A DNA stretch of 32,016 nt from a virus (lineage: Duplodnaviria > Heunggongvirae > Uroviricota > Caudoviricetes): the IMG/VR virus record IMGVR_UViG_2541047849_000007. The stretch is one strand, 5' to 3'. Below, one piece after another: positions 1 to 18,517 of the stretch (position 1 is the stretch's first letter; every line of letters starts with the position of its first letter). The notes beneath the pieces were generated by a model. It did no database searches and was not told the origin of the DNA. It was given only the letters and a program-made list of their open reading frames with translations. The position numbers were made by a program, and so were the translations under genes.

Positions 1-633
1 TCATTCATCGTTCGTTGCACGAACGCGCCTGATCTCCACTCTGGCAATCTGATCTGCTGGAATATAGGTTGCCAGAGCTCCCCAGTACTTATCAACCACG
101 CCTTTATACTCTTCCCATTCGTTACTGCCTGAAGGGCTGCTGTGCGTGACGTAAAGAACCATATCGCCTTTATTCCCCAGGGTAAACGGACCGTTAGGCC
201 ACTCTTCAAAGTTCCCTGGCAGCCGTGACATCATACCGGAACCATCGCGAAGAATCACTCTGACCTCGGTAACGCTGAAGCCTGTTTGATCAAACATTGC
301 CTGCCATGCTGAGCTGGTATCGTCAGACCATGAAATATCATTATTCCACAGTAATCTGTACATCCATTTGCGACCGTACCTGCGCCACCACGCACCGCAT
401 GTAACGGCACACAGAAGTGCTGGTGGTGTTGCCAGCCAGGCATTCAGACCTGCCCACATAACAGCCTGGTAAGCCATCATTGCTGTCAGGCCAAAAATCA
501 GCGAAGAAAAAGTCACCTCAATGGGCTTGTGGTGATCCTTCAGTCCCACATTCGCAATAAAATACCCAATATAGCCACTGGTCAGGGTCACCAGTGTTGC
601 CCATGGCAGATTTAACAACGAAACGTCAAACAT
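1..633 (-). CDS. Membrane protein of unknown function (N-terminal TM helices plus soluble C-terminal domain)
   Basis: Track ORF 1..711(-). Preferred start is ATG at 631-633 with GGGAGA RBS about 5 nt upstream; stop at 1-3. Hydrophobic segments LPWATLVTLTSGYIGYFIANVGL, VTFSSLIFGLTAMMAYQAVMWAGL, AWLATPPALLCAVTCGAWW. No family recognised. Confidence 0.55.
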   Translation of the reverse strand: MFDVSLLNLPWATLVTLTSGYIGYFIANVGLKDHHKPIEVTFSSLIFGLTAMMAYQAVMWAGLNAWLATPPALLCAVTCGAWWRRYGRKWMYRLLWNNDISWSDDTSSAWQAMFDQTGFSVTEVRVILRDGSGMMSRLPGNFEEWPNGPFTLGNKGDMVLYVTHSSPSGSNEWEEYKGVVDKYWGALATYIPADQIARVEIRRVRATNDE

Positions 634-670
634 ATTTTCTCCCTGCATCCTGAATACTAAAGAGAGAGCA

Positions 671-707
671 TAAAAAAAGCACGGTAAGGGGTCTACCGTG
701 CTTTTAT
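671..707 (-). terminator. Rho-independent terminator downstream of mor-like gene (bidirectional hairpin)
   Basis: Perfect 9-bp inverted repeat AGCACGGTA / TACCGTGCT with 7-nt loop. Flanked by A7 on plus strand (U7 after the hairpin on the minus-strand transcript) and by TTTTA on the plus side. Confidence 0.55.
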
Positions 708-747
708 ACAATAAGGAGATTTTTGAAAGGACTTTAACAAGCAGGAA

Positions 748-1146
748 TTATCTGGATTTGTTAACGTCTTTCGTCTCCTCTGGCAGATCTTCATCAAACA
801 ACCTGCCCTGCATCCGATCCAGTTCTTCTTTTCTGACCCGCTTAACCACGCTGTAGACCCACTGAAGCGAAACACCAAACTTGCGGGCCAGTTCGTGGTG
901 GTTGCGTCCGTTAAACTCCCTGAAGATTTCCCGGTCGCGCTGACTGACCTTCCATACCATGCCCATCGGGAAATAAACGTTTTGCCCGCCCCAGACCTGC
1001 ATCATTCGGTTCGCGACGGCCTGACCAATCTGGTCGGCAATTGCGGGCTCAATATCAATAATCTCGCGAACGGTCTCAGAGGTATGCTGTGCCAGCTCCA
1101 CCAGGAGTTCCGGCCCTTTACTTCGAAACTGATTCAGGTCGCTCAT
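748..1146 (-). CDS. mor: Mor/C-family transcriptional activator (Mu middle/late activator family)
   Basis: 132 aa. C-terminal FREFNGRNHHELARKFGVSLQWVYSVVKR matches the Mor/C HTH region as I remember it. ATG at 1144-1146 with GGGAG RBS. Lies directly downstream of the GemA-like gene as in Mu. Confidence 0.7.
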   Translation of the reverse strand: MSDLNQFRSKGPELLVELAQHTSETVREIIDIEPAIADQIGQAVANRMMQVWGGQNVYFPMGMVWKVSQRDREIFREFNGRNHHELARKFGVSLQWVYSVVKRVRKEELDRMQGRLFDEDLPEETKDVNKSR

Positions 1147-1570
1147 GTTTTACTCCCGCAGCTCTGTGCTGCCACTTCTTCAGTTTCTCAATAACACTGC
1201 TTGCCTGTTCAGTATTGAGCCAGCGCAGGGCGCTGATGCCCGTTTCCCGCTTGATCCACCGCGCTAATGCATTTTCTGAACGGTCACGAACAATGCCGGC
1301 AGCAGCCATTTCAAGCCATAGCGCACGGATTTTCCTGGACTGCGGATGGTTATCCAGCGGTAAACCGGAGCTGGCTTTTCCGGCAGGCTTAACGCGAAAG
1401 CCTTTCCTTTTCATGGATTCCAGCACGCAGTTTAGTTGTGTGGTATCCATTCCTTTGGTTGAGGCTTTACCGGTCAGCCCCTGTAACATCTGGCGATAGG
1501 TGTCTTCATCCATACCCAGTTCATTACGGGCAATATGAATGAGCTGGATAAGACGTTGTTTAGTCATCAT
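1118..1570 (-). CDS. gemA: GemA-like protein (Mu gp16 family, DUF1018)
   Basis: About 150 aa from ATG 1568-1570 (AAGGAG RBS 5 nt upstream). N-terminal KQRLIQLIHIARNELGMDEDTYRQML resembles the GemA family. Overlaps the mor start by 29 nt. Confidence 0.65.
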   Translation of the reverse strand: MMTKQRLIQLIHIARNELGMDEDTYRQMLQGLTGKASTKGMDTTQLNCVLESMKRKGFRVKPAGKASSGLPLDNHPQSRKIRALWLEMAAAGIVRDRSENALARWIKRETGISALRWLNTEQASSVIEKLKKWQHRAAGVKHERPESVSK

Positions 1571-1775
1571 CGTTGCTCCTTTTACCTGCGCCACCGATAT
1601 AATCGACATATAAAGGAAGCGCCACAGGCCAGCACAGGAACATCACCGACCAGCTAATCCAGTAGCCGGCACCACTGTAACGTGAATAAAACCCTGAACG
1701 GCGGTGCAGTTCAGCAGTACACCAACCGACAAAACAATACCAGAACAGGGCACATACAACAGATTCAGCCGTCAT
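1560..1775 (-). CDS. Small hydrophobic protein (71 aa), unknown function
   Basis: Internal ATG 1773-1775 of track ORF 1560..1931, preceded by a G-rich RBS. Product is largely hydrophobic (VVCALFWYCFVGW ... WSVMFLCWPVALPLYV). Overlaps neighbouring genes on both sides. Confidence 0.35.
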   Translation of the reverse strand: MTAESVVCALFWYCFVGWCTAELHRRSGFYSRYSGAGYWISWSVMFLCWPVALPLYVDYIGGAGKRSNDDD

Positions 1776-1995
1776 TCTGAATATCCCCCCAACTGATATG
1801 AATATTACGGGCAGCAATGACAGGGTCGTTATTCCACCATGCACCTGACATGTATTTTTCAACCTGTTCGCGTCCGGCAATAACACCAATTGTGATCCCC
1901 GGCCTGACGTTCTTAAAAAAGGCGCGGGCAAAAAGGTATCTGGCAGATATTCGGCAGGCTTTTAATTTCCGGCTGTTACCTGATAGCGTAATCAT
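1765..1995 (-). CDS. Hypothetical protein (76 aa)
   Basis: ATG 1993-1995 overlaps the stop of the upstream gene (ATGA coupling); GGAGG RBS. Confidence 0.45.
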   Translation of the reverse strand: MITLSGNSRKLKACRISARYLFARAFFKNVRPGITIGVIAGREQVEKYMSGAWWNNDPVIAARNIHISWGDIQNDG

Positions 1996-2676
1996 CTGGC
2001 CTCCAGTTTCTGTTGTTCCTGCCCACTGACCGGGCGGTGCAGTCTGACGTTCTGCCCTTCACGAAACCCCGCATAGCGCGAGGCGTCGCCATTGCGGCTT
2101 CTTCCCGGTTTACGCGCCCTGGTGGTTTGCGTCTGCGGGTATTTATGTTCCAGCCACTGCTGCATCAGTTCACGCTCATCATCGGTCAGGGCAAAGGACT
2201 GTATTTCACTGATAACGGCCAGCACCCAGCCTTCGGCAAACTGGTCTCCACGGCTGGTGCGGGTGGCGGTTTTTATTCTTTTGTTCTGTGCACTGATATA
2301 CTGCTGACGCGCCTTTTTCAGCTGACGGGCCAGCACTTCCCAGGTGTATGCAGCCAGTGCCGCACGTTCCCGGTTGCCGTAGAACCCCACAGACGGATGC
2401 GTGCCGGGGTGAATGATGGAGTTAACACCAAATACCTCGCGGATGATGTTCATCAGGCCTGGCATGTAGCGCGGTGGACGGAGACTGCCTGTCGGCCAGT
2501 AGTGACTGATGGTTTCATCAATATCACTCATAGCAATGTCGGAATGTGTGATGCCGTGAACATCCATCAGTTTACGGGCTCGGCGCAGTGCCAGAGCGGC
2601 CTCGTGCGGGTTGCCGGATGCGGCCAGCGCCAGCAACTTTTTCAGTTTCTCAATGTGTTTATTCTGGTCTGTCATT
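1992..2676 (-). CDS. Hypothetical prophage protein, DUF2786-like N-terminus
   Basis: Start ATG 2674-2676 (GGAGAT RBS). N-terminal IEKLKKLLALAASGNPHEAALALRRARKLM resembles the DUF2786 signature from memory; needs HMM confirmation. Confidence 0.5.
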
Positions 2677-2887
2677 GTTCTGTATCTCCGGTATTTTTCT
2701 GCCGTTTCCATGCCCGGACAGCGTCGGACAGCTCTTTCAGGCTGTATGCTGCTTTAAGCTTTTCCCATAACCACTGTGTTGTTATGTGCATCAGCAGGGC
2801 AGCCAGGGCTGCCCCCGCACTGAGGCATGTCGCCAGGCCAGTAAGAATCAGTATCCATGCGGTGATTTCCCTGAGTATGTCAGCCAT
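2672..2887 (-). CDS. Small membrane protein (71 aa)
   Basis: ATG 2885-2887 with GGGAGG RBS. Central hydrophobic stretch AWILILTGLATCLSAGAALAALLM. Confidence 0.45.
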   Translation of the reverse strand: MADILREITAWILILTGLATCLSAGAALAALLMHITTQWLWEKLKAAYSLKELSDAVRAWKRQKNTGDTEQ

Positions 2888-2901
2888 TGAATGCCTCCCG
2901 G

Positions 2902-3198
2902 TTACTCGTTCGTGTAAATCACGCCCAGTCGTGCAGCCAGACGTTCCAGTTTTTTCTGTTTGTGGAAGTCAATCAGCCGGTCCATCCCCTGAAGGCGCAA
3001 TTGCTCTGTCATGATTTCCACGTCTGCCAGCTCTGCCGCGAGGTCGCTTTCGCTGCCCTGTCCGTTCAGATTGCGGGCAGCACTGGCCGCCAGTTCAGCG
3101 GCCTCTTCTGTCAGTTTCAGGGCCTGTGCGTCCGGCCCGAAACGCTGCAGGGCCAGACGGTAGAGGGCGGTGCGGGTGAGTATGGTGTTCCGTGTCAT
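2902..3198 (-). CDS. MazG-like all-alpha NTP pyrophosphohydrolase (putative)
   Basis: 98 aa. EExxE-type motif (LTEEAAELAAS) and a second acidic motif (AAELADVEIM) in the arrangement typical of MazG/HisE-type pyrophosphatases. ATG 3196-3198 with GAGGG RBS. Confidence 0.45.
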   Translation of the reverse strand: MTRNTILTRTALYRLALQRFGPDAQALKLTEEAAELAASAARNLNGQGSESDLAAELADVEIMTEQLRLQGMDRLIDFHKQKKLERLAARLGVIYTNE

Positions 3199-3207
3199 GC
3201 CGCGCCC

Positions 3208-3480
3208 TCAGTGCTTCCGGCTGACGGTGATGTGCAGGCCGCCTTCTGCAGTGGTTTCCATCCGGTACGGCACCTCATGCTCTGCCGTGTGGGTGAGTGT
3301 GTTCATCAGTACCTGCAGGGCAGCCGCCTTTCCGTTGGTTGCCACAATGGCCTGTGTGGTCATGCTGATTAGCGCCGTCAGGACGTGCTTCACATCGGTG
3401 AGGTCGCGGCATTCACACTCGTTGACATAGTGTTCAACAAGGGTTCGGGTGCGCTGTCGTGCTTCCTGTGGGGTAATCAT
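3208..3480 (-). CDS. Hypothetical protein (90 aa)
   Basis: ATG 3478-3480 with GGGAGG RBS; ATGA overlap with the downstream gene stop. No family recognised. Confidence 0.45.
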   Translation of the reverse strand: MITPQEARQRTRTLVEHYVNECECRDLTDVKHVLTALISMTTQAIVATNGKAAALQVLMNTLTHTAEHEVPYRMETTAEGGLHITVSRKH

Positions 3481-3671
3481 TGCGAGTCCTCCCTGTCAGG
3501 GCGGGAGAATTCCATGACGGGCACGTCTGCCGAAAAATGCTGGCTGCAGTACGGGCAGACCAGGGTGACGCGTACCGCAGGGATGTGGTATTTACCGGAC
3601 ATCACGGCGATGGCGCTGTGAAAACGCAGGGCTGTTATATCCCTCTCGCACTGAATACATTTAAATATCAT
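3477..3671 (-). CDS. Small Zn-ribbon-like protein (64 aa)
   Basis: Two CxxC pairs (CIQC ... CPYC). ATG 3669-3671 with GAGGAG RBS. Confidence 0.5.
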   Translation of the reverse strand: MIFKCIQCERDITALRFHSAIAVMSGKYHIPAVRVTLVCPYCSQHFSADVPVMEFSRPDREDSQ

Positions 3672-3768
3672 GATTTAATTCTCCTCTGTTTCCGGCGTGC
3701 AGAAGCCCGCGGCGCTGACGCCGGAATAAAAAAGAAAATGTTTTTATTAAATAATTAACGTGGTGTGT

Positions 3769-4299
3769 TTACTGCACATCCTGCTCAAAAGGAATTATTG
3801 AAAAATCCTCAATGTCGCTTTTAATGGAAATACCGGGAATATTTTTCACGGCCTCTTTTTCATTCAGGATAGCGTCTTTATTTATTTCCTCTTTTACACG
3901 AATAAAGCGCTCAAGCCCCAGACGTCTCAGTAATTCAATAACATTATCCGCCCCACGGATACTGACTGATGGCGGACGGTTTCGCCACTGCACCTCGCCG
4001 GTGGTAAGGTTAGCGAACTTCACCTTCCCGTTGCCGGTCAGTTCATCACGGTGCGCCTCACACCATGTCTGGATACCGGACTGCAGTTCGGCCATGCGTT
4101 TTTTCAGGCTCTCGGTGAGCGGGGCATAACGTGCGGTGATATCGCCAATGGCGTCATTCATTTCTGTTTCAGCCCTGACCAGTTCACGTTGTGCGTCACC
4201 GAGTAGTCTGATTCCCTCAATGACCTCTTCGCGTGTCCCTGGTACCCAGAGTGCCGCTGCGGCCTTGATACGTTTTGCCCCTTTTGTACTTTTTGCCAT
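3769..4299 (-). CDS. gam: Gam-like host-nuclease inhibitor (Mu Gam family)
   Basis: 176 aa with the size, charge pattern and coiled-coil character of Mu Gam. Sits downstream of transposition gene B as in Mu. Confidence 0.65.
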   Translation of the reverse strand: MAKSTKGAKRIKAAAALWVPGTREEVIEGIRLLGDAQRELVRAETEMNDAIGDITARYAPLTESLKKRMAELQSGIQTWCEAHRDELTGNGKVKFANLTTGEVQWRNRPPSVSIRGADNVIELLRRLGLERFIRVKEEINKDAILNEKEAVKNIPGISIKSDIEDFSIIPFEQDVQ

Positions 4300-4326
4300 A
4301 TTTTATGATTTCTCCGGTTGTGCTGA

Positions 4327-4596
4327 TTACCACAAAGATTCCGGCCACACGACGCGACAGCCGTGCAGTTCGAAAACGCCCTGACGGAAATATCCCCTGT
4401 GGTCATGTCCGGTATACAGATAACAGGCCTTTCCCTGCTCAAGCATGCGCATGCAATGCGCACTCCGGGAAACGCGGATGACAGGTTTGTTACCCCTGAT
4501 GGTGATGCTTTGTACATCCGTGTTCGTCGCCTTAAGCGCCATAATGGCTGACTGCACTTTGCTGATTTGCTGGTTGATACCTGTGGTGGATTTCAT
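4327..4596 (-). CDS. Hypothetical protein (89 aa)
   Basis: ATG 4594-4596 with AAGGAG RBS, immediately after the B stop (TAATAATG). Confidence 0.45.
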   Translation of the reverse strand: MKSTTGINQQISKVQSAIMALKATNTDVQSITIRGNKPVIRVSRSAHCMRMLEQGKACYLYTGHDHRGYFRQGVFELHGCRVVWPESLW

Positions 4597-4598
4597 TA

Positions 4599-5765
4599 TT
4601 AAACTCCTTTGACAACGTCAGCGTTGACCTGTGGAACCCCGATTTCAGCGGCCAGATTCATGGCGGCTATTACCAGGTTACTGACGGCCAGCGGATACAG
4701 CAGGCTGACCATATTTTTACGATGACTTCCCGGATTGCTCAGGCGGGCACGTATGGCATCCACTGCGCTGGCGTCCATAATGTCCGTCAGTTGTTTACCG
4801 GCCCGTTGCAGTTTGAACGTCAGAAATTCTTCAAGGTTATTGTCCAGAGGCAGAAGTTCGACCACCTCACAGCGCTGAACGACTTCACGGACTTCCATAT
4901 TGCGTTCAGACAGTTTTGTCGCCAGTTCCGGCTGGCCAATCAGCACGATGGACAGCAGTTTTTTGAAACCGGACTCCAGCTCAAAAAAGCGTTTGAGGTG
5001 TTTCAGTGTCGGAATGGGCAGACTGTGGGCCTCCTCAATCACCAGAACGTGGCTGAACCCCGCCTGGCTGCTGTCTTTCAGGACGCGATGCAACTGGCGA
5101 AAGCGGGCGTCCTGACTGCGTCTGATGCTTTCCAGTGGTGCGATGGTACTGATAATGGCTTCGGCAATAGCTGCTGCCTTCAGGGTTTTCCCTTTCACAT
5201 CGTTGTCTTCCATAGCGATGATGTATGGCTCGATAACAATTACCGGCGCATTCTCGCGGTTAATACGTTCAGTCAGGTCGCGGCGCAGCGTGGATTTACC
5301 CGCACCGGACTCACCGATGACGGCCATAAACCCACCATGACGGGCTGTCTGGTACAGCGCCTCACGCACGTAGCGAATGTCCGGGGTGGTGAACACATCA
5401 TCAGAACCCTGCATGGCTTCATCGGCGAACGGGTCACGGAAAAGACCAAACGCTTTTTTGGTTGCTGGAAATAACACCTGTTTTTTGAGTAACATATTCT
5501 CTTCCTCACTGAGGCTCGTTTTATCTGTGGTACCCGCTGTACGGGGCGTGGCCGCGCCCTGTACAGCATCAAAACTCTTCGTTGTATCAATCCCCTGACT
5601 TTCCAGCCAGGACGCAAGACGCCGGCGCACTTCTCCGGGGCTGGTGCGGGGCCACGCGTTATGATTCACAATCTGGGCCAGCGTGGCCTCAGAAACATCG
5701 ACAGCTCTCGCCGCCACCGCCTGTGGAATACGGGCCTCTTTCAGTTGCTGCTTCAGTACCAGCAT
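4599..5765 (-). CDS. AAA+ transposition ATPase / target-DNA activator (MuB/TniB-like)
   Basis: Walker A GESGAGKST and Walker B-like VLVIEEAH; N-terminal HTH-like region. Preferred start is ATG 5763-5765 (GAGGAGGG RBS 5 nt upstream) rather than the track start at 5792. Immediately downstream of the transposase. Confidence 0.8.
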   Translation of the reverse strand: MLVLKQQLKEARIPQAVAARAVDVSEATLAQIVNHNAWPRTSPGEVRRRLASWLESQGIDTTKSFDAVQGAATPRTAGTTDKTSLSEEENMLLKKQVLFPATKKAFGLFRDPFADEAMQGSDDVFTTPDIRYVREALYQTARHGGFMAVIGESGAGKSTLRRDLTERINRENAPVIVIEPYIIAMEDNDVKGKTLKAAAIAEAIISTIAPLESIRRSQDARFRQLHRVLKDSSQAGFSHVLVIEEAHSLPIPTLKHLKRFFELESGFKKLLSIVLIGQPELATKLSERNMEVREVVQRCEVVELLPLDNNLEEFLTFKLQRAGKQLTDIMDASAVDAIRARLSNPGSHRKNMVSLLYPLAVSNLVIAAMNLAAEIGVPQVNADVVKGV

Positions 5766-5775
5766 GTTTCCCTCC

Positions 5776-7545
5776 TCAGTTGCCGTTAACAATGCTGATA
5801 ACGCTGCTGCGGGCCGGCGTGGTCAGCGTGGCCATGACTTCATCCAGTGCGGCTTCCGGTACGCCGTCCGGGTACTGTGCTGTTAACTGGCGGTAATGTT
5901 CCGGCGTCCAGGTCAGGCCGTCGGCGCTGAACTTATCGCGCAGGGCTTTCGCGGCCTCCACATGAGTCATGGGACGCTGTTCAGTGCGCGGTCCGCGTAC
6001 GTCAGAGGCCTGACCACGCTTCGGTATACAGGCCGGAAGTGTGGCGTCATCAATATGTTTATACGGGTCAAGCCGCCCGCCGAACGGCAGCGCCTTCGCC
6101 TTGCGTGCGGCAGCTGCATCTGCGGCGTTGTCTGTACCGGTGACCAGCGCTTCGGTTTCTTTTGCCGCCATCTGCGCCGGGGTTTCCGGCAGGGCTTTGT
6201 AACTTTCGCCAAATACCGCCGCGCCTTCAGCAAAGCCAAACTCGTTCTTTCTGACCTCTTCGACCAGGAAGAACGTCTCGTGGCCGTCCTCACCGGTCAG
6301 AACCACCTGTGCCACATCGCTGCGCCACGGGTTACGGGTAATCATCAGTTTTTCACCGACCAGTACGCCCGGTACCGTTGATACGTCAAATTCAGTGCCC
6401 CGGAACGAGACACGAAGTTTTGGCGTGACTTTGCGGAGTTCTGGTGCCGCCACAGCCAGTTCACGACATACCTCAACGGAAGGCGCTTTTTTCAGCTGCT
6501 CAGCAGTAATCTTCAGCCAGATATCCGTGCGGGTTTTACCGTGGCGGCTGTGAACAGCCGTGGCGTTAAAGTGGCTGCGCCATTTCGCGGCCAGCGCGTT
6601 GAGTTCTTCCAGACTGTGAACCGGCCGGAACTTCAGACCCGGCTCCAGCTTGCGTTCGATAATGTCACGCGCCTTTTCCACCTGTCCGGTGGCGCGGGCG
6701 TTATGCGGCTTGTGCGCTATCAGGTCGATGCCCAGTGAGCGGCACATGTTTTTCGTCATACCCGCGGTGTTTGCCGAGCCGGGGTCGAGATAGAGTATTT
6801 TTGGCACGCCGTGCAGCACGTCTGCGCCGCCACGCTCCTGCATGGCGTTGATAAGCACAGAACACAGGTTCTCACCGGATTCCGCACCCGTCACATACTC
6901 AACGTAAATCCAGCCGCTGGCATGGTCGGTAATCTCGTAACTCCACACGCGGTCACTGGCGATACGGGCAAGGTTAGCGGGCTTGTTTTTGTAGAATTTC
7001 GCGCTGTCCATCACCTGCAGCCCTTTATGTCCATTGCTCAGGTAGTAAAGCGTGCAGAGTGAGGCGTCAATCTGCCAGACATGATTGGGGTGCAGACTGG
7101 CCACTTCGGTATGCGGTGCAGGGGCATCCAGTTGTTCCGGGTGCAGGCCATAGTTACGCAGGGCACGACTGATGGCATCTTCGGACAACGGGAAAAACTC
7201 ACCGGTGGTTTCATCTGTTCTGCCTGCGGAGATAAAGCCGTTAGCCCGCAGGGTTTCCACTGCATCCGCGATGGAATAGAGACGCTTACCGTTCTTGCGG
7301 GTGGCCTCACGTAGTGTGGCAGATATCAGCGCGGCTTCGTCGCGGGTCAGGGTGCTGCGTCCGGCATCGGCGCGTTTTTTGCGTTTATCAGTCACAGAGA
7401 CCTCCTTCAGCCTGCGCAGCAGAGTGGCGCGGGACATGCCAAGTTCAGCACAGGCAGCGTCGTATATTGCACCGCGTTTACCATGCCCCGCATTACGTGC
7501 CGCGCGGGCTGTTTCAACAAGTTTTTCAGTCAGTGCCGGGGTCAT
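5776..7545 (-). CDS. DDE transposase (Mu A-like, rve/integrase core)
   Basis: 589 aa. N-terminal HTH region, then a catalytic core with candidate DDE residues (HVWQIDAS ... LYLDPGSANT ... downstream E). ATG 7543-7545. Confidence 0.85.
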   Translation of the reverse strand: MTPALTEKLVETARAARNAGHGKRGAIYDAACAELGMSRATLLRRLKEVSVTDKRKKRADAGRSTLTRDEAALISATLREATRKNGKRLYSIADAVETLRANGFISAGRTDETTGEFFPLSEDAISRALRNYGLHPEQLDAPAPHTEVASLHPNHVWQIDASLCTLYYLSNGHKGLQVMDSAKFYKNKPANLARIASDRVWSYEITDHASGWIYVEYVTGAESGENLCSVLINAMQERGGADVLHGVPKILYLDPGSANTAGMTKNMCRSLGIDLIAHKPHNARATGQVEKARDIIERKLEPGLKFRPVHSLEELNALAAKWRSHFNATAVHSRHGKTRTDIWLKITAEQLKKAPSVEVCRELAVAAPELRKVTPKLRVSFRGTEFDVSTVPGVLVGEKLMITRNPWRSDVAQVVLTGEDGHETFFLVEEVRKNEFGFAEGAAVFGESYKALPETPAQMAAKETEALVTGTDNAADAAAARKAKALPFGGRLDPYKHIDDATLPACIPKRGQASDVRGPRTEQRPMTHVEAAKALRDKFSADGLTWTPEHYRQLTAQYPDGVPEAALDEVMATLTTPARSSVISIVNGN

Positions 7546-7560
7546 AGCTTGTCTTCCCTG

Positions 7561-7878
7561 TTATCCGATTCTGGCGGCAATTTTTCTGGCACGGTCGCGC
7601 AGGGTTTCGCCATCGCAGGTTTTCACCACGTTATTTACCGGTTGCGGCGCAACTGCCGGGCGCAATGCTGACTGATGCTGCAGACGTCTTATCTGCTGCA
7701 TCAGCATCACTTCCATCGTCAGTACAAACGGATGCGCCTCCTGTGCGGGTACGCAGATTTCACCGGAAGGTGTCACCACGCGGAAACCCTGCACCATCTC
7801 CGGCAGCAGATTACACAGTGCGTGCCCCAGTGCCTCCGGGCTGTCCATCAGGATATTTTGTGTGTTATCCGTGTTCAT
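7561..7878 (-). CDS. Hypothetical protein (105 aa)
   Basis: ATG 7876-7878 overlaps the upstream stop (TAATG). No family recognised. Confidence 0.4.
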   Translation of the reverse strand: MNTDNTQNILMDSPEALGHALCNLLPEMVQGFRVVTPSGEICVPAQEAHPFVLTMEVMLMQQIRRLQHQSALRPAVAPQPVNNVVKTCDGETLRDRARKIAARIG

Positions 7879-8795
7879 TACTGCATGCCCTCCGGTCGGT
7901 TGATTTCAGGCTCCGGTTCGGTCAGCCATGCGGGGACATCGTTACCCGATGGTGCGGCATCAAGGTCGAACGTCTCACGCAATGCATGAACACTGCGTTC
8001 AATCTGGCAGACCAGACCGGCCATGAAATCTCTGGGGGTATCAATCATGTTTTTACTGCAGTATTCACACAGGGTTTCAAAGGCACCGGAGAGCCGGACG
8101 GCGATGGCAGATTCCGCCTCAACCGCTAATGCGGTCACTTCCGCCCGCAGCTTCTTCACCTCTTCATCAGGCTCAGGCGGTTGAATACGGGATTTCTTCT
8201 CCAGTTTTGTGGCCAGTTCGTTGATTTTTTCGTCCTTTCCGGCAAGCACCTGTTGCTGAGCTGCGTTAGTTTCGCGCGCTTCACGCAGGGCCTGGCGAAG
8301 TTCACGTACTGACATGCGATCAACATCATCAAGCGTCAGGCCGGCAACTGTGCCGCCGTCGGCCAGTTCGGCAAGGTCTTCATCGTCTTCAGCAACAAGT
8401 TCAAATAATTTTGCCTTACCCAAAAGCGACAACGTTGTCGCTTTTGGCTCTAGTTTTGGTGAAAGGTATTTCAAAGATGCTTTCATCATTCGTTGTGCTG
8501 CGCGCACGTGCAAACCAAGTTGTTCTTCTACAATTCCAACAAAGTCCCCGTGTGGCTCATTTTCTTTTAAGATGATCAGCCGTTTACCCGCTTCCAGCAT
8601 AGATTCAGCACTCTGCGCCATATAAAAACGTGCTTCGTGAACGATGCGATCACGTTCATAAGGCAGTCCATCACCAAACTGCTGCATGATCTCCATGCGA
8701 TGCTGTGTCATGGCATTCAGGCTGACGTTGAGATCATCCGACAGCGGTACCTCGGCGTTCAGTTCAGTGTTAACCGGTGATTTGGTGCGTCCCAT
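7878..8795 (-). CDS. Hypothetical protein (305 aa), acidic coiled-coil C-terminal half; possibly DUF3102-like
   Basis: ATG 8793-8795 with AAGGAG RBS. Family assignment is tentative and from memory only. Confidence 0.45.
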   Translation of the reverse strand: MGRTKSPVNTELNAEVPLSDDLNVSLNAMTQHRMEIMQQFGDGLPYERDRIVHEARFYMAQSAESMLEAGKRLIILKENEPHGDFVGIVEEQLGLHVRAAQRMMKASLKYLSPKLEPKATTLSLLGKAKLFELVAEDDEDLAELADGGTVAGLTLDDVDRMSVRELRQALREARETNAAQQQVLAGKDEKINELATKLEKKSRIQPPEPDEEVKKLRAEVTALAVEAESAIAVRLSGAFETLCEYCSKNMIDTPRDFMAGLVCQIERSVHALRETFDLDAAPSGNDVPAWLTEPEPEINRPEGMQ

Positions 8796-8805
8796 TGATT
8801 ACTCC

Positions 8806-9120
8806 TTACAAACGACTACCTGAAATGACACGTTGGTTGATTTCGTTAATGCGATCCTGTGCACGTGCCATCTCGTTACTGTGGGCCATGGCGATCTGCA
8901 GCAACTGGATGCCCGGTGCGAAACGCCCGTTTTCCAGTTTCAGGGCCAGTCCTTCTTCAATGAGGGTGTTGAGTGCCCGGTTGATGTTTGCCGGTGACTC
9001 GTGCAGTGCTGCCGCCAGTTCACCATTGGAAATACCGTTCAGGGCATGACCGCGCAGCGCTTTGAGTACCCGGAGGATGCGACTGCCGGAGCTTGAAACA
9101 TTCGTCTTACTCATCTGCAT
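8806..9120 (-). CDS. Winged-helix DNA-binding regulator (putative)
   Basis: ILRVLKALRGH ... ISNGELAAALHESPANINRALNTLIEEGLA resembles MarR/IclR-type winged HTH. An alternative start at ATG 9112-9114 has better GAGG spacing. Confidence 0.5.
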   Translation of the reverse strand: MQMSKTNVSSSGSRILRVLKALRGHALNGISNGELAAALHESPANINRALNTLIEEGLALKLENGRFAPGIQLLQIAMAHSNEMARAQDRINEINQRVISGSRL

Positions 9121-9166
9121 ACCTCTTTTGCGATATGTGATAACCTTTTACAAAGAATCAAAATAT

Positions 9167-9355
9167 TCAGGCTGCCTGAGCTGTTGATTTCAGCCCCAGT
9201 TTCACGGCGATTTCATGGGATTTACCGTAACGTGCTTTGCTCTGCCCATTGAGAACGCGGTATACCTCATTGCGGTTGTAGCCGTTTTCTTCTGCCCAGC
9301 GGGTGAAAGTGATCCCGCGCTGGCGGAAGAGAGCTTTGACTTGTTCTGCAGTCAT
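9167..9355 (-). CDS. ner: Ner-like DNA-binding protein (first gene of early operon)
   Basis: 62 aa. RYGKSHEIAVKLGL resembles the Mu Ner/Nlp C-terminal helix region. AAGGAG RBS. Sits directly downstream of a strong sigma70-like promoter and diverges from the repressor gene. Confidence 0.55.
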   Translation of the reverse strand: MTAEQVKALFRQRGITFTRWAEENGYNRNEVYRVLNGQSKARYGKSHEIAVKLGLKSTAQAA

Positions 9356-9402
9356 CGTTGTCTCCTTTGTTGATGCAATGATGTTTGCCTTATGTGTGAT
9401 AG

Positions 9403-9431
9403 ATTATGGTGCAGATTATCTCACCAGTCAA
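9403..9431 (-). promoter_or_regulatory. Early promoter (Pe-like) with overlapping putative operator repeats
   Basis: On the minus strand: TTGACT (-35; plus 9426-9431), 17-nt spacer, CATAAT (-10; plus 9403-9408). Direct repeats AGATTAT at about 9401-9407 and 9413-9419 overlap the -10 and spacer. Confidence 0.5.
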
Positions 9432-9455
9432 CTTAAAGAGTGCAGAAAAACTCAC

Positions 9456-9794
9456 ATGATCGGGTTACGTATTAAAGAAGAAAGAGAGCGTCTATCTCTT
9501 ACACAGCAAGGGTTGGCTGATGCTATCGGTGTGGCAAAGAGAACTTTTATTGATTGGGAAAAAGATCGCACTTCTCCTACTGCAGTGCAGTTATCTGCAC
9601 TATCAGAAATCGGTGTAGATGTTTTGTATGTAGTTACTGGGGTGCGGAGTCAGCCTGTTGTTGCACCTTATATGTCACAAGAAAAGAAAGAGTTAATGGA
9701 TGCATTCGACGAGATGAGCCCCGAACAACGGAGGGCAATTCTTGAGGTCGGCAAAGTCTTCATTCAACCCAAACCAAGCAAACTCGCAGGCTGA
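9456..9794 (+). CDS. XRE-family HTH repressor (lysogeny repressor candidate)
   Basis: ATG 9456. Classic HTH_3 region LSLTQQGLADAIGVAKRTFIDWEKDRTSP. Divergent from the early operon. The track ORF begins at an upstream GTG inside ner and is not preferred. Confidence 0.7.
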   Translation: MIGLRIKEERERLSLTQQGLADAIGVAKRTFIDWEKDRTSPTAVQLSALSEIGVDVLYVVTGVRSQPVVAPYMSQEKKELMDAFDEMSPEQRRAILEVGKVFIQPKPSKLAG

Positions 9795-9880
9795 TTCTGA
9801 CCTGGACAGAAAGGACAGGTGGTTGATCTGGATGCTTTCAGAAAACGCCGTCAGTAGCATGGCAGAAATCGGCGGGCTTA

Positions 9881-9914
9881 CCGGAAAGCACTGTACTTTC
9901 CGGTTATGGCTTTT
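9881..9914 (+). terminator. Rho-independent terminator after repressor gene
   Basis: CCGGAAAG-cactgta-CTTTCCGG (8-bp perfect stem) followed by TTATGGCTTTT. Also sits at the 3' end of the convergent dam gene. Confidence 0.55.
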
Positions 9915-10677
9915 AGAAATTGCAGATCACCAGCTCACGGCGTGGAGTTGATTTGCCTGCCAGACTGTAGTTGATGTTCACTGTCTGTATGTTCAGTCCA
10001 GTGAACACCTCGCGCATCTGCGGGATGTCGTTCACCGAAATTATCATCTTTCCTCTGATGCACCGGGCCAGCTCTGCCAGCCGCGAGTAGTTCCCTTCAG
10101 GAAAATCCACACCATAGCCTTCTGTACCCAGATACGGCGGGTCACAGTAGAACAGCGTGTGCGGACGGTCATAGCGCTCAATGCACTGTTGCCAGTCCAT
10201 GTGTTCTATCACCGTTCTGGAAAGCCGCAGGTGTGCCGCTGACAGTTCTTCCTCGATACGCAGCAGGTTGAAGCGTGGCGGGGATGTGGTGGAGGTGCCG
10301 AAGCTGTGCTCTGCCACCTTGCCGCCAAACGCCTGCTTCTGGAGGTAGTAGAACCGTGCTGCACGCTGGATATCCGTCAGTGTTTCTGTCGGGGTGATCT
10401 GCAGCCATTTGTAGATCTGCCGGCTGACCAGCGCCCATTTGAACTGGCGGACAAATTCTTCCAGATGATGTTTTACCACCCGATACAGATTTACCAGTTC
10501 ACCATTGATATCGTTAATGACTTCGAGCTTACCAGGTGTCTTAAGAAAATAGAGCGCTGCTGCGCCGCAGAACGGCTCCACGTAACATTCATGCGCCGGA
10601 AACAGCGGCAGGATGTGTTTTGCCAGGCGACGTTTGCCACCAATCCATGGAACGATGGGTAATGTCTGCATTTTCAT
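9913..10677 (-). CDS. dam: DNA N6-adenine methyltransferase (Dam/D12 class)
   Basis: 254 aa. Motif I region VEPFCGAAALYF and catalytic motif IV DPPY (FYCDPPYLGTEGYG). Confidence 0.85.
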   Translation of the reverse strand: MKMQTLPIVPWIGGKRRLAKHILPLFPAHECYVEPFCGAAALYFLKTPGKLEVINDINGELVNLYRVVKHHLEEFVRQFKWALVSRQIYKWLQITPTETLTDIQRAARFYYLQKQAFGGKVAEHSFGTSTTSPPRFNLLRIEEELSAAHLRLSRTVIEHMDWQQCIERYDRPHTLFYCDPPYLGTEGYGVDFPEGNYSRLAELARCIRGKMIISVNDIPQMREVFTGLNIQTVNINYSLAGKSTPRRELVICNF

Positions 10678-10869
10678 AATCTGTAAGCCTTTTACAATTA
10701 TTAAAAATATGGCAGGCTAGTCTGGTCTCGCGAGACTGACTGAACCCCGGTCGGCTCACAGCGCATTCCTGTGGGACGATGGCCAGCCCGGTGGGTCCGA
10801 AGCACCGGGCTGGTCGTTCTTTCATGATGCGGCAGGGATGAAGTGATTTCTGTTAATGTGGTTTAGGGA

Positions 10870-11085
10870 TTATCCGGGGCGATTTTCTGACCTTATCTGG
10901 TCCAGGGCATAAGTGATCCCTTCTGCAAAAACAGAAGTATCAAACTGCTTTTGTATTTCCTGAAAATGAACAGTGGCACGACAGACACTCAGTTCTCCGC
11001 GATGTAACCGGATAATATCTTCCAGAACATTGTTCACTGCTTCGGCACGGCGCTGATGTTCTGTTAACGTTAATCGGGGATTCAT
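10870..11085 (-). CDS. Hypothetical protein (71 aa)
   Basis: ATG 11083-11085 with AAGGAG RBS 7 nt upstream. No family recognised. Confidence 0.5.
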   Translation of the reverse strand: MNPRLTLTEHQRRAEAVNNVLEDIIRLHRGELSVCRATVHFQEIQKQFDTSVFAEGITYALDQIRSENRPG

Positions 11086-11462
11086 GATGCACTCCTTAAA
11101 TGATGATTTTTATGTACTCACCGGCAAAATATTCTGCCGATTACTGAACACGCATCCGGCTCCTCAGGTTTTGATTTATTCTGGTTTTTTCGATATCCCG
11201 GACCAGGTTGATCACGACAGAAAAAGTGCCGGTATTTTATTGATACGCTGATATGGCTTCGGGATAACAGCTATATTCGTTACTCTCAGTTGCTGGCTGT
11301 GGGAGCGGCTGATGTCGTCCTCACGGAAAAAACGCTCTGTCTGCTCAATGCCATGCCGACCTTTCTGCAGCCCCGGCCCGTACCATTTAAAGAGTCACTT
11401 CTGGATGCAGTAAAAACCGGTGAAAATGCAGTCATCGCTGAATGCGTATCCCGGATTATGCG

Positions 11463-12011
11463 TTACGTGTTTAATGAACGTAAGTGAGGTTTATCCGCTG
11501 TCTGCATAATCCCGATAGCCAGTGCGAGGGGAAGCAATTCCGGGGAAACTCTTTCAAACAGCGATTCCCATTCTCCTCTCGCCATCACTCTGTCCAGCCC
11601 GCCCTCCAGCTGCATTTCAGCAATCTTCCTGATTTCCCGGAACAACGCCGCTTTGATCTCTTCATGCTCAGCTTTATTTTCCGGTGTCAGAATGTATTCG
11701 TCGAAGAACCGGGGAGGCTGGTTAACGGGGGGCATGTTCACCGGGATGTGTTCCTGTATCCCGTACTCCGGGGCTGAAAAACATTTTGTTGTCTGACCGG
11801 TGAGTTTGCGTAACACCTTCATGAGTTGCTCCTGAAGCAGCTCATTCGTCCGACAGATACGCTCGTCGTCCACAACTGCGGCATCGACAATGACGCTTTT
11901 TCCAAATTCCTTTTTCACCATCTCTTTTATACGCGTCAGAACGTAACTTTTACCGCTGCCTACAGGCCCGGACACTCTGACGGTGATGGTCGGCTTCGGT
12001 GTGACTGTCAT
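11463..12011 (-). CDS. P-loop NTPase, small kinase-like fold (unknown substrate)
   Basis: Preferred start ATG 12009-12011 (AAGGAG RBS 7 nt upstream), giving about 182 aa. Walker A GPVGSGKS sits about 15 aa from the N-terminus, followed about 25 aa later by VIVDAAVVDDE, as in small nucleotide kinases. Confidence 0.55.
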   Translation of the reverse strand: MTVTPKPTITVRVSGPVGSGKSYVLTRIKEMVKKEFGKSVIVDAAVVDDERICRTNELLQEQLMKVLRKLTGQTTKCFSAPEYGIQEHIPVNMPPVNQPPRFFDEYILTPENKAEHEEIKAALFREIRKIAEMQLEGGLDRVMARGEWESLFERVSPELLPLALAIGIMQTADKPHLRSLNT

Positions 12012-12039
12012 TCTGTATCTCCTTTGTGAGTGATCCAGC

Positions 12040-12354
12040 GTGTATTCTGCATACCCCGAACACGCCTCTCTCTTAACGCGCTTTAAAATCCTCCGCGCCA
12101 CGCTTTTGCCATGCTGTCTCCACACAACAAGGAGACATTTTCATGAAACCATTCACTTCCCTTACCCGGACACCACGCAACTGGAACTGCGCCGTGAGCT
12201 TGATTACCTGGCAGATCGCAAAATGGTGGAACTGGAGAGGAGACCGTCCGGTGACTGGTTTGCCGATCTGAGTCGCCTTGGTGTGGATATTGTGGAATAC
12301 ACCGTGGAATGCGGCCCCGGTATTGCCCGCCCGGAAAAATACTGGAGTGAGTGA
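12040..12354 (+). CDS. Hypothetical protein, start undetermined (possible frameshifted gene)
   Basis: Protein-like reading frame runs to a TGA 2 nt before the terS ATG, but has no in-frame ATG with an RBS. The only ATG with a strong RBS (AAGGAGA, ATG 12143) is in the adjacent frame and gives a 42-aa Trp-rich product. Confidence 0.3.
   Translation: MYSAYPEHASLLTRFKILRATLLPCCLHTTRRHFHETIHFPYPDTTQLELRRELDYLADRKMVELERRPSGDWFADLSRLGVDIVEYTVECGPGIARPEKYWSE
12066..12090 (+). promoter_or_regulatory. Candidate late promoter motif, copy 1 (head of late operon)
   Basis: CTCTCTTAA-cgcg-CTTTAAAATC. Shares the TCTTAA-N4-CTTTAA(A/T)ATC pattern with sites at 23227 and 29577. About 50 nt upstream of the first late-operon RBS. 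Confidence 0.4.
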
Positions 12355-12356
12355 TT

Positions 12357-12899
12357 ATGGGACGTCGCAGCAGCATTGATTCTCTGCCGAAGGAGGTCCG
12401 TCGCTGGCTTGAGCGGGCACTGACGGAGAATAATTTCACCGGCTATGCAGAGCTTGAAAGTCTGTTGAAGGAAAAGGGGTACAGCATCACCCGCTCTTCC
12501 CTGCAGCGGTTTGGCTACAAAATGGAGCAGCAACTGGCCCGTGTGCGGGCGGCAACCGAGGCAGCGCGTCTGCTTGCCCGGGAGGCCGGAGACGATCCTG
12601 ATGACCGTTCAGCCGGACTGATAACCCTCGTCCAGACCGAAATGACGGATATCCTGATGCGCCTGCAGGAGTCGCGGGAAAACGACGATCCCTTCGCCCG
12701 GGCAAAACTGCTGGCAACGGCTTCAAAAAATATCGCCACACTGACCCGCGCCTCGGTCAACCTCAAGCGCTATCAGGCAGAAGTCAGAGAGAGGGTTGAA
12801 CGTGCTGCCGCTGCCGCCGAGAAAATTGCCCGTAAGGGCGGGCTCTCTGCGGAAGCCGTACAGGCACTGCGCCGGGAAATTCTGGGGGTGGCGTCATGA
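12357..12899 (+). CDS. Terminase small subunit (Mu gp27-like)
   Basis: 181 aa from ATG 12357. Positioned immediately upstream of, and overlapping (ATGA), the large terminase gene. N-terminal region resembles Mu gp27. Confidence 0.65.
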   Translation: MGRRSSIDSLPKEVRRWLERALTENNFTGYAELESLLKEKGYSITRSSLQRFGYKMEQQLARVRAATEAARLLAREAGDDPDDRSAGLITLVQTEMTDILMRLQESRENDDPFARAKLLATASKNIATLTRASVNLKRYQAEVRERVERAAAAAEKIARKGGLSAEAVQALRREILGVAS

Positions 12900-14419
12900 C
12901 GGAGCTGCCGCCGCACATTCCTGACACCGCGAGTTATGAGACACCGCCGGTTCTGTTGCCTTACCAGCAGCGCTGGGTGGCAGATACCTCTCCGCTTAAG
13001 GTGATGGAAAAGAGCCGTCGTACCGGTATTACATGGGCTGAGGCATCCGATAACGTACTGACCGCAGCCTCTTCTGCGCCTGCAGGCGGGATGAATGTGT
13101 ATTACATCGCCTATAACCAGGATATGACCGTCGAATACATTCAGGCGTGTGCGATGTGGGCGCGGGCATTCAACTATGCGGCCAGTGAAATTGAAGAAGG
13201 ATTCTGGGAGGAGGACGACGACGATAAACACATCAGGACTTACACCATCAAATTTCCTGACTCCGGCTTTCGCATTGTCGCGCTCTCCAGCCGCCCGTCT
13301 AACCTGCGTGGCCGTCAGGGTATTATTGTTATCGACGAAGCGGCGTTCCATGAGCAACTGGACGAACTGCTGAAAGCGGCGCTGGCGATGCTTATCTGGG
13401 GGGGCAAGGTACGCGTTATCTCCACCCATGACGGTGACGACAATCCATTCAGTACGCTTATCGGAGATATCCGTGCCGGACGTCAGGGAGGCAGCGTACA
13501 TCGCATCACTTTCCGGGAAGCCGTATCTGAGGGGCTGTTCCAGCGCGTTTGTCTGCGCACCGGGAAGGAATGGTCGGAGGCATCCGAGCTGGCCTGGATG
13601 GCGTCGGTGTACAAATTCTACGGTGCCGGCGCATCCGAAGAGCTTGACTGTATTCCGGCCAACGGTGGCGGTGCCTGGCTGTCCCGTGCCCTGATAGAGT
13701 CCCGAATGTCCGCTGATACGCCAGTATTGCGTCTGACCTGCAAGGAAGGTTATGAACTGCTGTCTGATGAGGTTCGCTTCCACGAGACACAGGACTGGCT
13801 TGATGAGCATCTGAAACCCTTGCTGGAGGCACTCCCCACTGATGCCCGCTCTTTCCTGGGGCGCGACTTTGGTCGCAGCGGTGATTTGTCGGTGGACTAT
13901 CCCCTGCTGCAGGAGAAGAACCTGGTACGACGCGTGCCATTCGTACTGGAGCTGCGTAACGTGCCGTTCAGACAGCAGGAGCAAATCACCTGGTATCTGA
14001 TGGATGGCCTGCCCGGTCTGCTGGGTGCAGCATTTGATGCCCGTGGTAATGGTGCCTATCTGGCTGAATACGCCATGCAGCGCTACGGCTCCAGCCGGGT
14101 TCAGCAGGTGATGCCAACCGAAGGCTGGTACCGGGAGCATATGCCTCCGGTCAAAGCTGCACTGGAAGACGGTAACCTGCTGGACTTACCAAAAGATGAA
14201 GACACACTGGATGACCTGCGGGCCGTTCAGGTGGTGAACGGTGTCCCCCGCGTGCCGGAACAACGCTCAAAAGCAAAGGCTGATGGTGGTAAACGCCACG
14301 GGGATTCAGCCATCGCACTGGCGCTGGCGTATTTCGCCAGCCGTGAAATTAACAAAGGGCCGGTGAAGGCAAGCTCACGACGTCGTCGTCAGGCGGCCCG
14401 TATGCTGGAGGGATTCTGA
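12896..14419 (+). CDS. Terminase large subunit (Mu gp28-like)
   Basis: 507 aa. Size, position and acidic nuclease-like C-terminal half fit a Mu-type large terminase. Confidence 0.8.
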   Translation: MTELPPHIPDTASYETPPVLLPYQQRWVADTSPLKVMEKSRRTGITWAEASDNVLTAASSAPAGGMNVYYIAYNQDMTVEYIQACAMWARAFNYAASEIEEGFWEEDDDDKHIRTYTIKFPDSGFRIVALSSRPSNLRGRQGIIVIDEAAFHEQLDELLKAALAMLIWGGKVRVISTHDGDDNPFSTLIGDIRAGRQGGSVHRITFREAVSEGLFQRVCLRTGKEWSEASELAWMASVYKFYGAGASEELDCIPANGGGAWLSRALIESRMSADTPVLRLTCKEGYELLSDEVRFHETQDWLDEHLKPLLEALPTDARSFLGRDFGRSGDLSVDYPLLQEKNLVRRVPFVLELRNVPFRQQEQITWYLMDGLPGLLGAAFDARGNGAYLAEYAMQRYGSSRVQQVMPTEGWYREHMPPVKAALEDGNLLDLPKDEDTLDDLRAVQVVNGVPRVPEQRSKAKADGGKRHGDSAIALALAYFASREINKGPVKASSRRRRQAARMLEGF

Positions 14420-16717: not shown

Positions 16718-16719
16718 CA

Positions 16720-17178
16720 ATGGCTTCCGATAACCTGGTCAGTGTCACCATTAATGATAAATCCCTGCGCCGGAGCCTCCGTGCGCTGGATCTGGCTGCC
16801 ACAGACATGGAGCCTGCGATGCGCAAAATCGCCGGAACCCTGCTGGCGGAAACACAGTTTAACTTTCTTGATGAGGGGCGTCCGGGGTGGATGCCCTCGC
16901 TGGCAGCGGAAGAACGTAACGGACAGACACTGCAGGATACCGGGCGTCTGATGGGGTCAGTATCAACCGAGCATGACGACCGGCAGGCTGTTGTGGGGAC
17001 CAACGTTGTTTACGGTGCCATTCACCAGTTCGGGGGTAAAACGGGGCGTAATGAGTCTGTTGAACTTCCGGCCCGCCCGTTCCTGCCGGTGACGGAGGAT
17101 GGAGAGCTACAGCCTGAAGTGGTAGTCCCCATCCTCGATACCATTGTCCGCCATCTTGAAGCAGCGGCCCGTCGCTGA
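16720..17178 (+). CDS. Virion morphogenesis protein (Mu G-like)
   Basis: 152 aa; position and size match Mu G. GAGAGGA RBS. Confidence 0.65.
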   Translation: MASDNLVSVTINDKSLRRSLRALDLAATDMEPAMRKIAGTLLAETQFNFLDEGRPGWMPSLAAEERNGQTLQDTGRLMGSVSTEHDDRQAVVGTNVVYGAIHQFGGKTGRNESVELPARPFLPVTEDGELQPEVVVPILDTIVRHLEAAARR

Positions 17179-17337: not shown

Positions 17338-17392
17338 GCCGGGCCCGCATTTCTCACAAACTGTCTCCGACAACATAACGCGGGACAGCAAA

Positions 17393-18508: not shown

Positions 18509-18517
18509 GGAGAAAGC

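Follow-up and report, generated by a model that had tools for sequence, protein, structure and literature searches.

In phage Mu, the middle promoter Pm is without a -35 hexamer, needs a Mor dimer bound to the dyad AGTAA-N6-TTAAT, and drives the late activator gene C (PMC4287176, PMC4390567). Among the Mu middle genes, genes 19 and 20, which come after gene 18, code for small, non-essential membrane proteins (PMC9239132). The Pm numbering used in this work comes from PMC4390567, whose primer JM6 and stated positions were matched to the sequence of Mu. With this numbering, the Mu mor-Mup18 intergenic region (NC_000929, about 9170-9248) has the mor stop codon at -56 to -54, the Mor box AGTAA-AGCCGG-TTAAT at -51 to -36, a hairpin AAAGCCGG-TTAAT-CCGGCTTT followed by T7 at -48 to -24, the Pm -10 hexamer TATCCT at -13 to -8, and the ATG of gene 18 at +26. 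Thus, Pm and the hairpin share DNA in Mu, as the candidate promoter and the hairpin do in the locus that is described here. The Mu hairpin after mor is presumably the early terminator (t9.2). The present locus also resembles Mu in its layout, because in both a Mor-family gene is followed after a few tens of nucleotides by a GC-rich hairpin with T7, a -10 of the TAT..T type and the next gene, and in both there are membrane-protein genes 3' of this region (19 and 20 in Mu). It differs from Mu in that it has a candidate -35 with four of six consensus matches at the hairpin apex and does not have a conserved Mor box, and in that the phage has a single Mor/C gene and the downstream gene is a terminal accessory gene and not a regulator.

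Two other kinds of system are comparable. In BcepMu and phiE255 (Bcepmuvirus), as here, gemA and mor end the early operon and a gene for a membrane-associated protein, gp31 in phiE255, follows near the genome end. In phiE255, unlike here, 427 bp separate mor from gp31, which is 141 aa long, and the DNA similarity to our sequence extends over only about 140 bp of mor at 72% identity. The 'moron'-type genes of prophages are also alike, in being accessory genes of unknown function that are located at a prophage end, are absent from some close relatives, and have a strong terminator upstream and a candidate promoter of their own. The difference is that the gene described here is the same gene at the same position in prophages from Escherichia to Arsenophonus, and is therefore not sporadic cargo.

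The window, that is, the whole 32,016-nucleotide stretch of DNA that was analysed, is a BcepMu-type, Mu-like E. coli prophage by its sequence matches. Bases 1-12,164 and 12,163-30,011, the latter being the part of the window that the fetched locus L006 covers, are 99.99% identical to the prophage of strain Ec1117, and prophages of ABU 83972 and of many other strains match bases 1-900 with 100% identity. The DNA from mor to the membrane-protein gene was matched in 634 of 5,426 complete E. coli genomes. The early genes are on the minus strand and run leftward, while the late genes run rightward. The early operon is about 9 kb long with the order ner-like gene, transposase, B, gam, gemA, and mor, and mor is its final regulatory gene according to the RefSeq annotation of identical and near-identical prophages. 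The Mor protein of the window is 31% identical to Mu Mor and 35% identical to Mu C, and no second Mor/C-family gene was found in the prophage by tblastn, mor being the sole copy. In the source genomes, a small convergent gene and the prophage end lie within the roughly 470 bp on the 3' side of the membrane-protein gene, and the hairpin site is about 1.1 kb from this end. The features from the early promoter to the membrane-protein gene, other than the promoter-like elements listed further below, are as follows.

9431, minus strand: early promoter TTGACT-17-CATAAT, consensus-like, the top site of the position weight matrix (PWM) in the whole window
1118-1609, minus strand: gemA
748-1146, minus strand: mor-family activator gene, 132 aa, stop codon TAA at 750-748, Pfam PF08765 with an E value of 1e-43
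675-705, minus strand: terminator hairpin, with a GC-rich stem at 701-679 and an A-U extension to 705-675
705-702, minus strand: A-tract that pairs with the first four T of the tail
701-693, minus strand: left arm of the stem, GCACGGTA(G)
692-688, minus strand: loop ACCCC, 5 nt
687-679, minus strand: right arm of the stem, (T)TACCGTGC
672-678, minus strand: T7 tract (U7 in the RNA), directly 3' of the stem and followed by ATGCT
1-633, minus strand: membrane-protein gene, 210 aa, ATG at 633-631 and stop codon at 3-1

Read on the minus strand from 705 to 675, the full hairpin is AAAA-GCACGGTAG-ACCCC-TTACCGTGC-TTTT. The first-pass annotation had described it as a perfect hairpin of 9 bp with U7; the U7 tract is there as described, while the stem was slightly overstated since it consists of eight Watson-Crick pairs, five of them G-C, and one G-U pair, to which four flanking A-U pairs are added. 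The consensus scan entered it with 13 pairs and a 5-nt loop. The folding energy is -16.7 kcal/mol for the hairpin with its tail and -12.3 kcal/mol for the GC core alone. The spacing given earlier, about 40 nt from the mor stop codon to the hairpin and about 35 nt from there to the ATG, agrees with the 42-46 nt and 38 nt (from T7 to the ATG at 633-631) that we measured. Under a strict filter, with minima of 8 perfect pairs, 5 G-C pairs, and 6 T among the 8 nt that follow, this hairpin was the sole match on either strand of the 32-kb window, and dinucleotide shuffles of the window gave any match in only 2 of 100 cases. With the looser built-in terminator scan, the total number of sites was not enriched over shuffles, and so the claim of a terminator depends on the quality of this single site and not on the number of sites. 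An Rfam search over the hairpin gave sub-threshold noise only.

The hairpin followed by a T-run is present between the early genes and the membrane-protein gene in all the enterobacterial loci examined except that of Arsenophonus; the hairpin of the IMG/VR variant L053 is weak (-6.3 kcal/mol), and a few IMG/VR loci, L051, L052, L054, and L056, have a different upstream gene and are without the hairpin. In seven lineages, the alignment across the hairpin is free of gaps and the stem shows compensatory changes, such as GCACGG/CCGTGC, GCGCAA/TTGCGC, and ACACAG/CTGTGT. Both-sided changes of this kind were found in 5 of the 13 stem pairs in these seven lineages, which are related to each other. Of the cells in this alignment, 92% are paired compared to 38-61% in controls in which the partner was slid by 1-3 columns, and the observed covariation score was reached by none of 500 shuffles, a figure that comes from only seven related sequences. 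In addition, unrelated stems occupy the same place after mor, namely, GGGCAGA/TCTGCCC in Klebsiella, GATGAGC/GCTCATC in Serratia marcescens, and GCCGG/CCGGC in Mu, and they too are followed by a T-run, which is T7 in L010, L027, and Mu and TTTCTT in L023. The 'T-run + AT(T/G)CT' is retained in most relatives despite their differing stems. In L007, an extra gene lies between mor and the hairpin, and the hairpin is still directly 5' of the membrane-protein gene. The covariation in the stem, together with unrelated stems that carry T-runs at the same place, points to selection of the RNA structure for termination.

The site thus has the features of an intrinsic terminator: a G/C-rich stem with a short loop, an uninterrupted U-tract, a position 3' of the stop codon at the end of co-oriented early genes, and covariation. 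The strong terminator that had been noted after mor is borne out by its being the only site to pass the strict filter and by the covariation, and the gene directly upstream of it is of the Mor family by its PF08765 match. We are highly confident that the hairpin and T7 are a real and conserved intrinsic terminator that closes the early operon, and we infer the efficiency of termination from the sequence. The hairpin would end the early operon without the need of any factor and would insulate the membrane-protein gene, and it gives the position at which the early operon ends in a Mu-like prophage family that is widespread.

The gene beyond the terminator had been called a membrane-protein gene, and the structure prediction agrees, because three long transmembrane helices followed by a small C-terminal beta-barrel are predicted (AlphaFold, pLDDT 77.5). 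In a Foldseek search against the PDB, there were weak Sm-like matches to the C-terminal barrel only, with E values of at least 0.2. The 210-aa protein matches PHROG 12870 over its full length with an E value of 6e-134, and this PHROG is without a known function. It had no match in Pfam at E values up to 0.01, none in PADLOC, and none that was significant in NCBIfam. Homologues with 46-57% identity carry PF19865/DUF6338, some of them weakly, and by way of these more distant homologues the protein may be described as DUF6338-like. Full-length homologues with 55-75% identity are found in prophages of Escherichia, Klebsiella, Salmonella, Citrobacter, Proteus, Serratia, and Arsenophonus, and 27 residues are invariant across 18 sequences of the family. 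In every enterobacterial case that was examined, the homologous gene follows gemA and mor at the prophage end. PhiKM does not have the membrane-protein gene and KP12 has a different gene there, and in both the stretch that resembles the window breaks off within the 3' end of mor, at about position 790. Since these close relatives are without the gene, the region is accessory, though widely conserved.

That the protein could be a conserved holin or other lysis component, which the first-pass annotation had raised against its own proposal, was also looked at. No holin, spanin, or endolysin family was matched in Pfam, PHROGs, NCBIfam, or PADLOC, and in the relatives a cassette of holin, transglycosylase, and spanin-like genes opens the late region, about 12 kb away. 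A holin was therefore rejected on the grounds that there is no family match, that the gene is outside the lysis cassette, and that a 210-aa protein with a C-terminal beta-barrel is unlike a holin; neither does it belong to any other known lysis component. Literature searches with the protein accession and with DUF6338 found nothing relevant.

It had been stated that there is no room for a promoter between the terminator and the membrane-protein gene. This does not hold, because a sigma-70-like site with a -35 hexamer, a 17-bp spacer, and a -10 hexamer fits inside the terminator, and in Mu the overlap of Pm with the equivalent hairpin shows that room for a promoter exists within terminator DNA. 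The elements between the hairpin apex and the ATG are as follows.

690-695, minus strand: candidate -35 TAGACC, four of six matches to TTGACA, at the hairpin apex
667-672, minus strand: candidate -10 TATGCT, matching TATAAT at positions 1, 2, 3, and 6 and overlapping the last T of the T-tract
654-659, minus strand: TAGTAT, a possible alternative -10 without a working -35, 7 nt past TATGCT, 4.9 bits when GTGCTT (two of six matches) is taken as its -35
639-643, minus strand: Shine-Dalgarno sequence GGGAG, 5 nt upstream of the ATG

The site TAGACC-17-TATGCT is the best sigma-70-like site between mor and the ATG by the PWM, with 8.15 bits and 8 of 12 consensus matches, and its -10 sits 33 nt from the ATG. 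In five other lineages the homologous position ranks first or second by the PWM, with 8.15 bits in each of L025, L007, and L024 and with 5.2 bits in L013 and L015. In these five other lineages the aligned hexamers are TAGACC/TATTCT once, TGGATA/TATTCT twice, and TGGATT/TATTCT twice, and across the window and the five the distance from the end of the candidate -10 to the ATG is 29-36 nt. Besides the base-pairing, the only conserved blocks of the alignment are the apex T(G/A)GA and the 'T-run + AT(T/G)CT', while the 20-30 nt between the candidate -10 and the ribosome-binding site cannot be aligned among the lineages. Sites this good are expected by chance at a rate of 0.61 per kb per strand, which comes to about 2% in a 40-nt target, and the lineages that share the hexamers are related and hence not independent. 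The -35 is poor in L010 and L023 of Klebsiella. The first 8 nt after TATGCT are pyrimidines only, so that the first purine start is at the far end of the usual range. TAGTAT (TAATAT in a close variant from IMG/VR) may serve as an alternative -10 or may be the start-site region of the nested promoter, as a pyrimidine-A step follows TATGCT by 8-9 nt. The first-pass annotation had proposed that the arrangement sets low expression of a potentially toxic membrane protein; in its bases and in its 5-nt spacing the Shine-Dalgarno sequence is strong, and so translation is not throttled.

The explanation that we favour, with moderate confidence, is that the locus is an insulating terminator of the early operon with a weak sigma-70 promoter nested in it, and that the terminal gene is its own transcription unit. 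The membrane-protein gene would be transcribed from within the terminator DNA, with TAGACC at the hairpin apex as the -35, the right arm and the T-tract as the 17-bp spacer, and TATGCT, beginning with the last T, as the -10. Transcription from there would begin about 25-30 nt upstream of the ATG, past the hairpin, so that the transcripts would escape termination. During lytic growth, leak past the terminator would add further transcripts of the membrane-protein gene. The promoter itself is probably real and probably weak, both its existence and its strength being judged from a candidate site. If it is, the element would be a compact natural part that stops transcription from upstream and restarts it at a set low level. 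When expression of the terminal membrane-protein gene in lysogens is judged, the gene is best treated as a transcription unit of its own. Terminators at operon ends and the overlap of terminator and promoter in Mu are already known, and the finding is therefore real and fairly ordinary.

Read-through or a promoter overlapping the terminator had both been put forward as ways in which the membrane-protein gene could be expressed, and of the two we rank the overlapping promoter, which is the arrangement of Mu Pm, above read-through. That read-through alone operates is possible, though we consider it distinctly less probable than the nested promoter. The stretch from the hairpin to the ATG would then be without a promoter, and the membrane-protein gene would be an attenuated distal member of the early operon, with its product made from a leak of a few percent and only when the early promoter fires. 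This would fit with the membrane-protein gene being always on the same strand and directly after the early operon and with the absence of a consensus-grade promoter in the built-in promoter scan, TAGACC-17-TATGCT being below its cutoff. It would also fit with L027, in which the next start codon, an ATG, comes as early as 23 nt after the T-run and leaves essentially no room for a promoter, and with the Citrobacter/Salmonella type L014/L022, in which the candidate -10 is lost (TTTTCC). Moreover, terminators in general tend to be T-rich past the U-tract, which could account for 'ATTCT', and the conserved T-rich tail may be just a part of the terminator. What argues against read-through alone is that a non-coding spacer of 30-50 nt from the T-run to the Shine-Dalgarno sequence is kept in nearly all lineages, whereas read-through needs only a ribosome-binding site, and that the top-ranking promoter-like site (best or second best) is at the same aligned position in the window and the five lineages given above. 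Efficient termination is to be expected of a canonical hairpin with U7 and an A-tract, and this would be an odd route of expression for a gene that different genera have kept intact, with 55-75% identity of the protein.

A wider proposal, which we regard as doubtful, is that the locus is part of a self-contained two-gene module at the early-operon end of BcepMu-type prophages, in which the DUF6338-like gene, with its promoter hidden in the terminator, is paired with the small convergent gene, and the terminator is one wall of the module. In the lysogen, the pair could act in exclusion or abortive infection or as toxin and antidote, under the control of convergent transcription. The convergent gene is conserved and codes for a hydrophilic protein of 48-53 aa, and its promoter, TTGAAA-18-TAGAAT, is strongly conserved and lies just beyond the edge of the window. 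In such a module, the convergent transcript would run antisense through the membrane-protein gene up to the same hairpin, which would be weakly bidirectional.

It is a little less likely still that the membrane-protein gene has a promoter of the Mu Pm type, in which a Mor-family protein would bind to a dyad at about -43.5, in the hairpin DNA or just upstream of it, and TAGTAT or TATGCT would be the -10 without a working -35, making the membrane protein the product of a 'middle' gene. The order of mor stop codon, hairpin with T7, -10, and next gene is that of Mu. With TAGTAT as the -10, the dyad CGGTA-N7-TACCG, which has a G/C-rich spacer, is centred near -44 and resembles the 5-6-5 Mor box of Mu at -43.5 (PMC4390567; numbering set here), and the TAATAT of the close IMG/VR variant at the TAGTAT hexamer is a further point in its favour. 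Either candidate -10 yields a 'GTA at -50 to -48' in common with Mu, and this match is therefore uninformative. A Pm-type promoter is expected to have a -35 with at most two of six matches; with TATGCT as the -10 there are four (TAGACC), and with TAGTAT there are two (GTGCTT).

The comparison of Mor proteins with hairpins weighs most against this kind of promoter. The Mor of the window is 91% identical to that of L007, 87% to that of L024, and 78% to that of L025, and those of the window, L007, and L024 have an identical helix-turn-helix, and yet the stems and upstream flanks in these three differ at many positions and covary. Conversely, L013, L022, and L027 have a very different and longer Mor (28-33% identity) with the same general architecture of the locus. 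If the dyad were bound in a sequence-specific manner it would be conserved, but the stems covary instead, and therefore a conserved Mor box is not supported. Dyads like the Mu-type Mor box, A(G/T)TAA-N6-TTAAT, were sought, and the alignments of Mor against the hairpins exclude a conserved site. The motif TCTTAA-N7-TAAWAT, which is common to the three clearest late-operon promoters and occurs at 12071, 23228, and 29579 (three sites compared to 0.12 expected), is absent upstream of the membrane-protein gene. Judging from these alignments, dependence of the membrane-gene promoter on Mor in the manner of Pm is unlikely. With the nested sigma-70 promoter as the preferred reading, this locus is probably another case of the Mu design, in which a terminator and the promoter after it share DNA, in an altered form that is apparently independent of an activator.

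Finally, that the inverted repeat is mainly a DNA-level element, such as a protein-binding site or a transposition or packaging signal, or is a chance palindrome and not an RNA terminator, is very improbable, because even though any hairpin is also a DNA dyad and the site is about 1.1 kb from the prophage end, the changes are compensatory with sequences that differ by lineage, the T-run is always adjacent on the transcribed strand, the position is directly 3' of the last early gene, such sites are rare in shuffles, and the location about 1 kb inside the prophage is unlike that of Mu-type transposase end sites, which are within the terminal 100-200 bp.

Two other motifs that recur in the window were considered and set aside. 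[quoted passage not shown] The 9-mer CTCTCTCTT is present upstream of both the membrane-protein gene and the holin gene, in a differing register to the -10, and is probably there by chance. When sequences were compared by eye, a Serratia relative was without the plus-strand promoter-like site that the window carries at 723-751, antisense to mor.

The sequence TCTTAA-N7-TAAWAT occurs three times in the window, compared with 0.12 copies expected from shuffled sequence, and all three copies are intergenic and lie immediately 5' of a late operon. These copies, together with a variant in which the spacing is one base shorter, are as follows.

12071-12089, plus strand, upstream of the holin/lysis genes
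23228-23246, plus strand, upstream of the tail-assembly genes
29579-29597, plus strand, upstream of the gpW-like baseplate genes
17319-17336, plus strand, N6 variant, upstream of the head genes

The TCTTAA half sits at about -25 to -20, and the motif is likely to be a late-promoter signature of this phage group.

The Ec1117 prophage (locus L006) is 99.99% identical to the window except that 2,151 bp of it (L006 20866-23016) are missing from the window. The junction is at 12164/12165, within 12143-12271, and the missing segment comprises codon 8 onward of the holin gene, the gene for the SLT transglycosylase, two more genes of the lysis cassette, and the start of the following gene. A 42-aa out-of-frame remnant is left. 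A query across this junction was covered to 80% at no place in the collection's complete E. coli genomes, and none of them spans it. It therefore looks as if either the prophage in the window is lysis-defective or the sequence has been altered.

Just outside the window, to the left of position 1, a gene of 48-53 aa (L006 8464-8698) runs opposite to the membrane-protein gene, and its end is 3 nt from the membrane-protein stop. This convergent gene is also present in the related prophages L007, L013, L022 (Citrobacter/Salmonella type), L023 (Klebsiella), L024 (Proteus), L026 (Arsenophonus), and L027. The N-terminal part of its product carries a conserved motif, D(Y/F)SE.PK...VTFE, and the tail is of low complexity. 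The predicted promoter, TTGAAA-18-TAGAAT, is conserved in most lineages examined; a clear match was not found in Proteus and Arsenophonus. Within its spacer, CATCCTTC is the inverted complement of GAAGGATG, which is in the ribosome-binding region of the same gene. Transcription of the small gene would proceed across the membrane-protein gene in the antisense direction.

Two features on the plus strand lie between the membrane-protein gene and mor or reach into mor.

672-710, plus strand, the terminator hairpin in plus-strand reading
723-751, plus strand, promoter-like TTGAAA-17-AATTAT

Since the hairpin in this reading has A7 before it and TTTTATAC after it, it could be weakly bidirectional as a terminator, stopping also transcripts that arrive from the prophage end; on this side the relatives retain only 3-4 T. 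The promoter-like sequence scores 10.25 bits, which ranks third among such sites in the window. It sits in the gap that separates the terminator from the mor stop and is directed antisense into mor; as the Serratia relative shows no conservation of it, it is probably a chance match.

The conserved part of the Mor-family protein closes with QGRLF (residues 113-117; 796-810, minus strand). Q113 does not vary across 12 Mor/C proteins and F117 hardly does, and similarity to the close relatives PhiKM and KP12 breaks down in the acidic tail that follows. By sequence, QGRLF resembles QPDLF, a C-terminal sliding-clamp-binding motif that was described recently (PMC12867686) for Mu C and the Mor/C family.

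Two further motifs are repeated in the window.

9141-9175, plus strand, TAA(C/GC)CTTTTACAA...AAAATAT..AGGCTG, adjoining the early regulatory region
10684-10715, plus strand, a similar stretch, immediately 5' of the dam methylase gene
684-696, GTA-N7-TAC, in the terminator loop region
12042-12054, GTA-N7-TAC, upstream of the holin gene

The two TAA(C/GC)CTTTTACAA stretches may share a role as operator or host-factor sites. GTA-N7-TAC occurs 11 times in the whole window, compared with 2.3 expected from shuffles, and the majority of its copies fall within genes.
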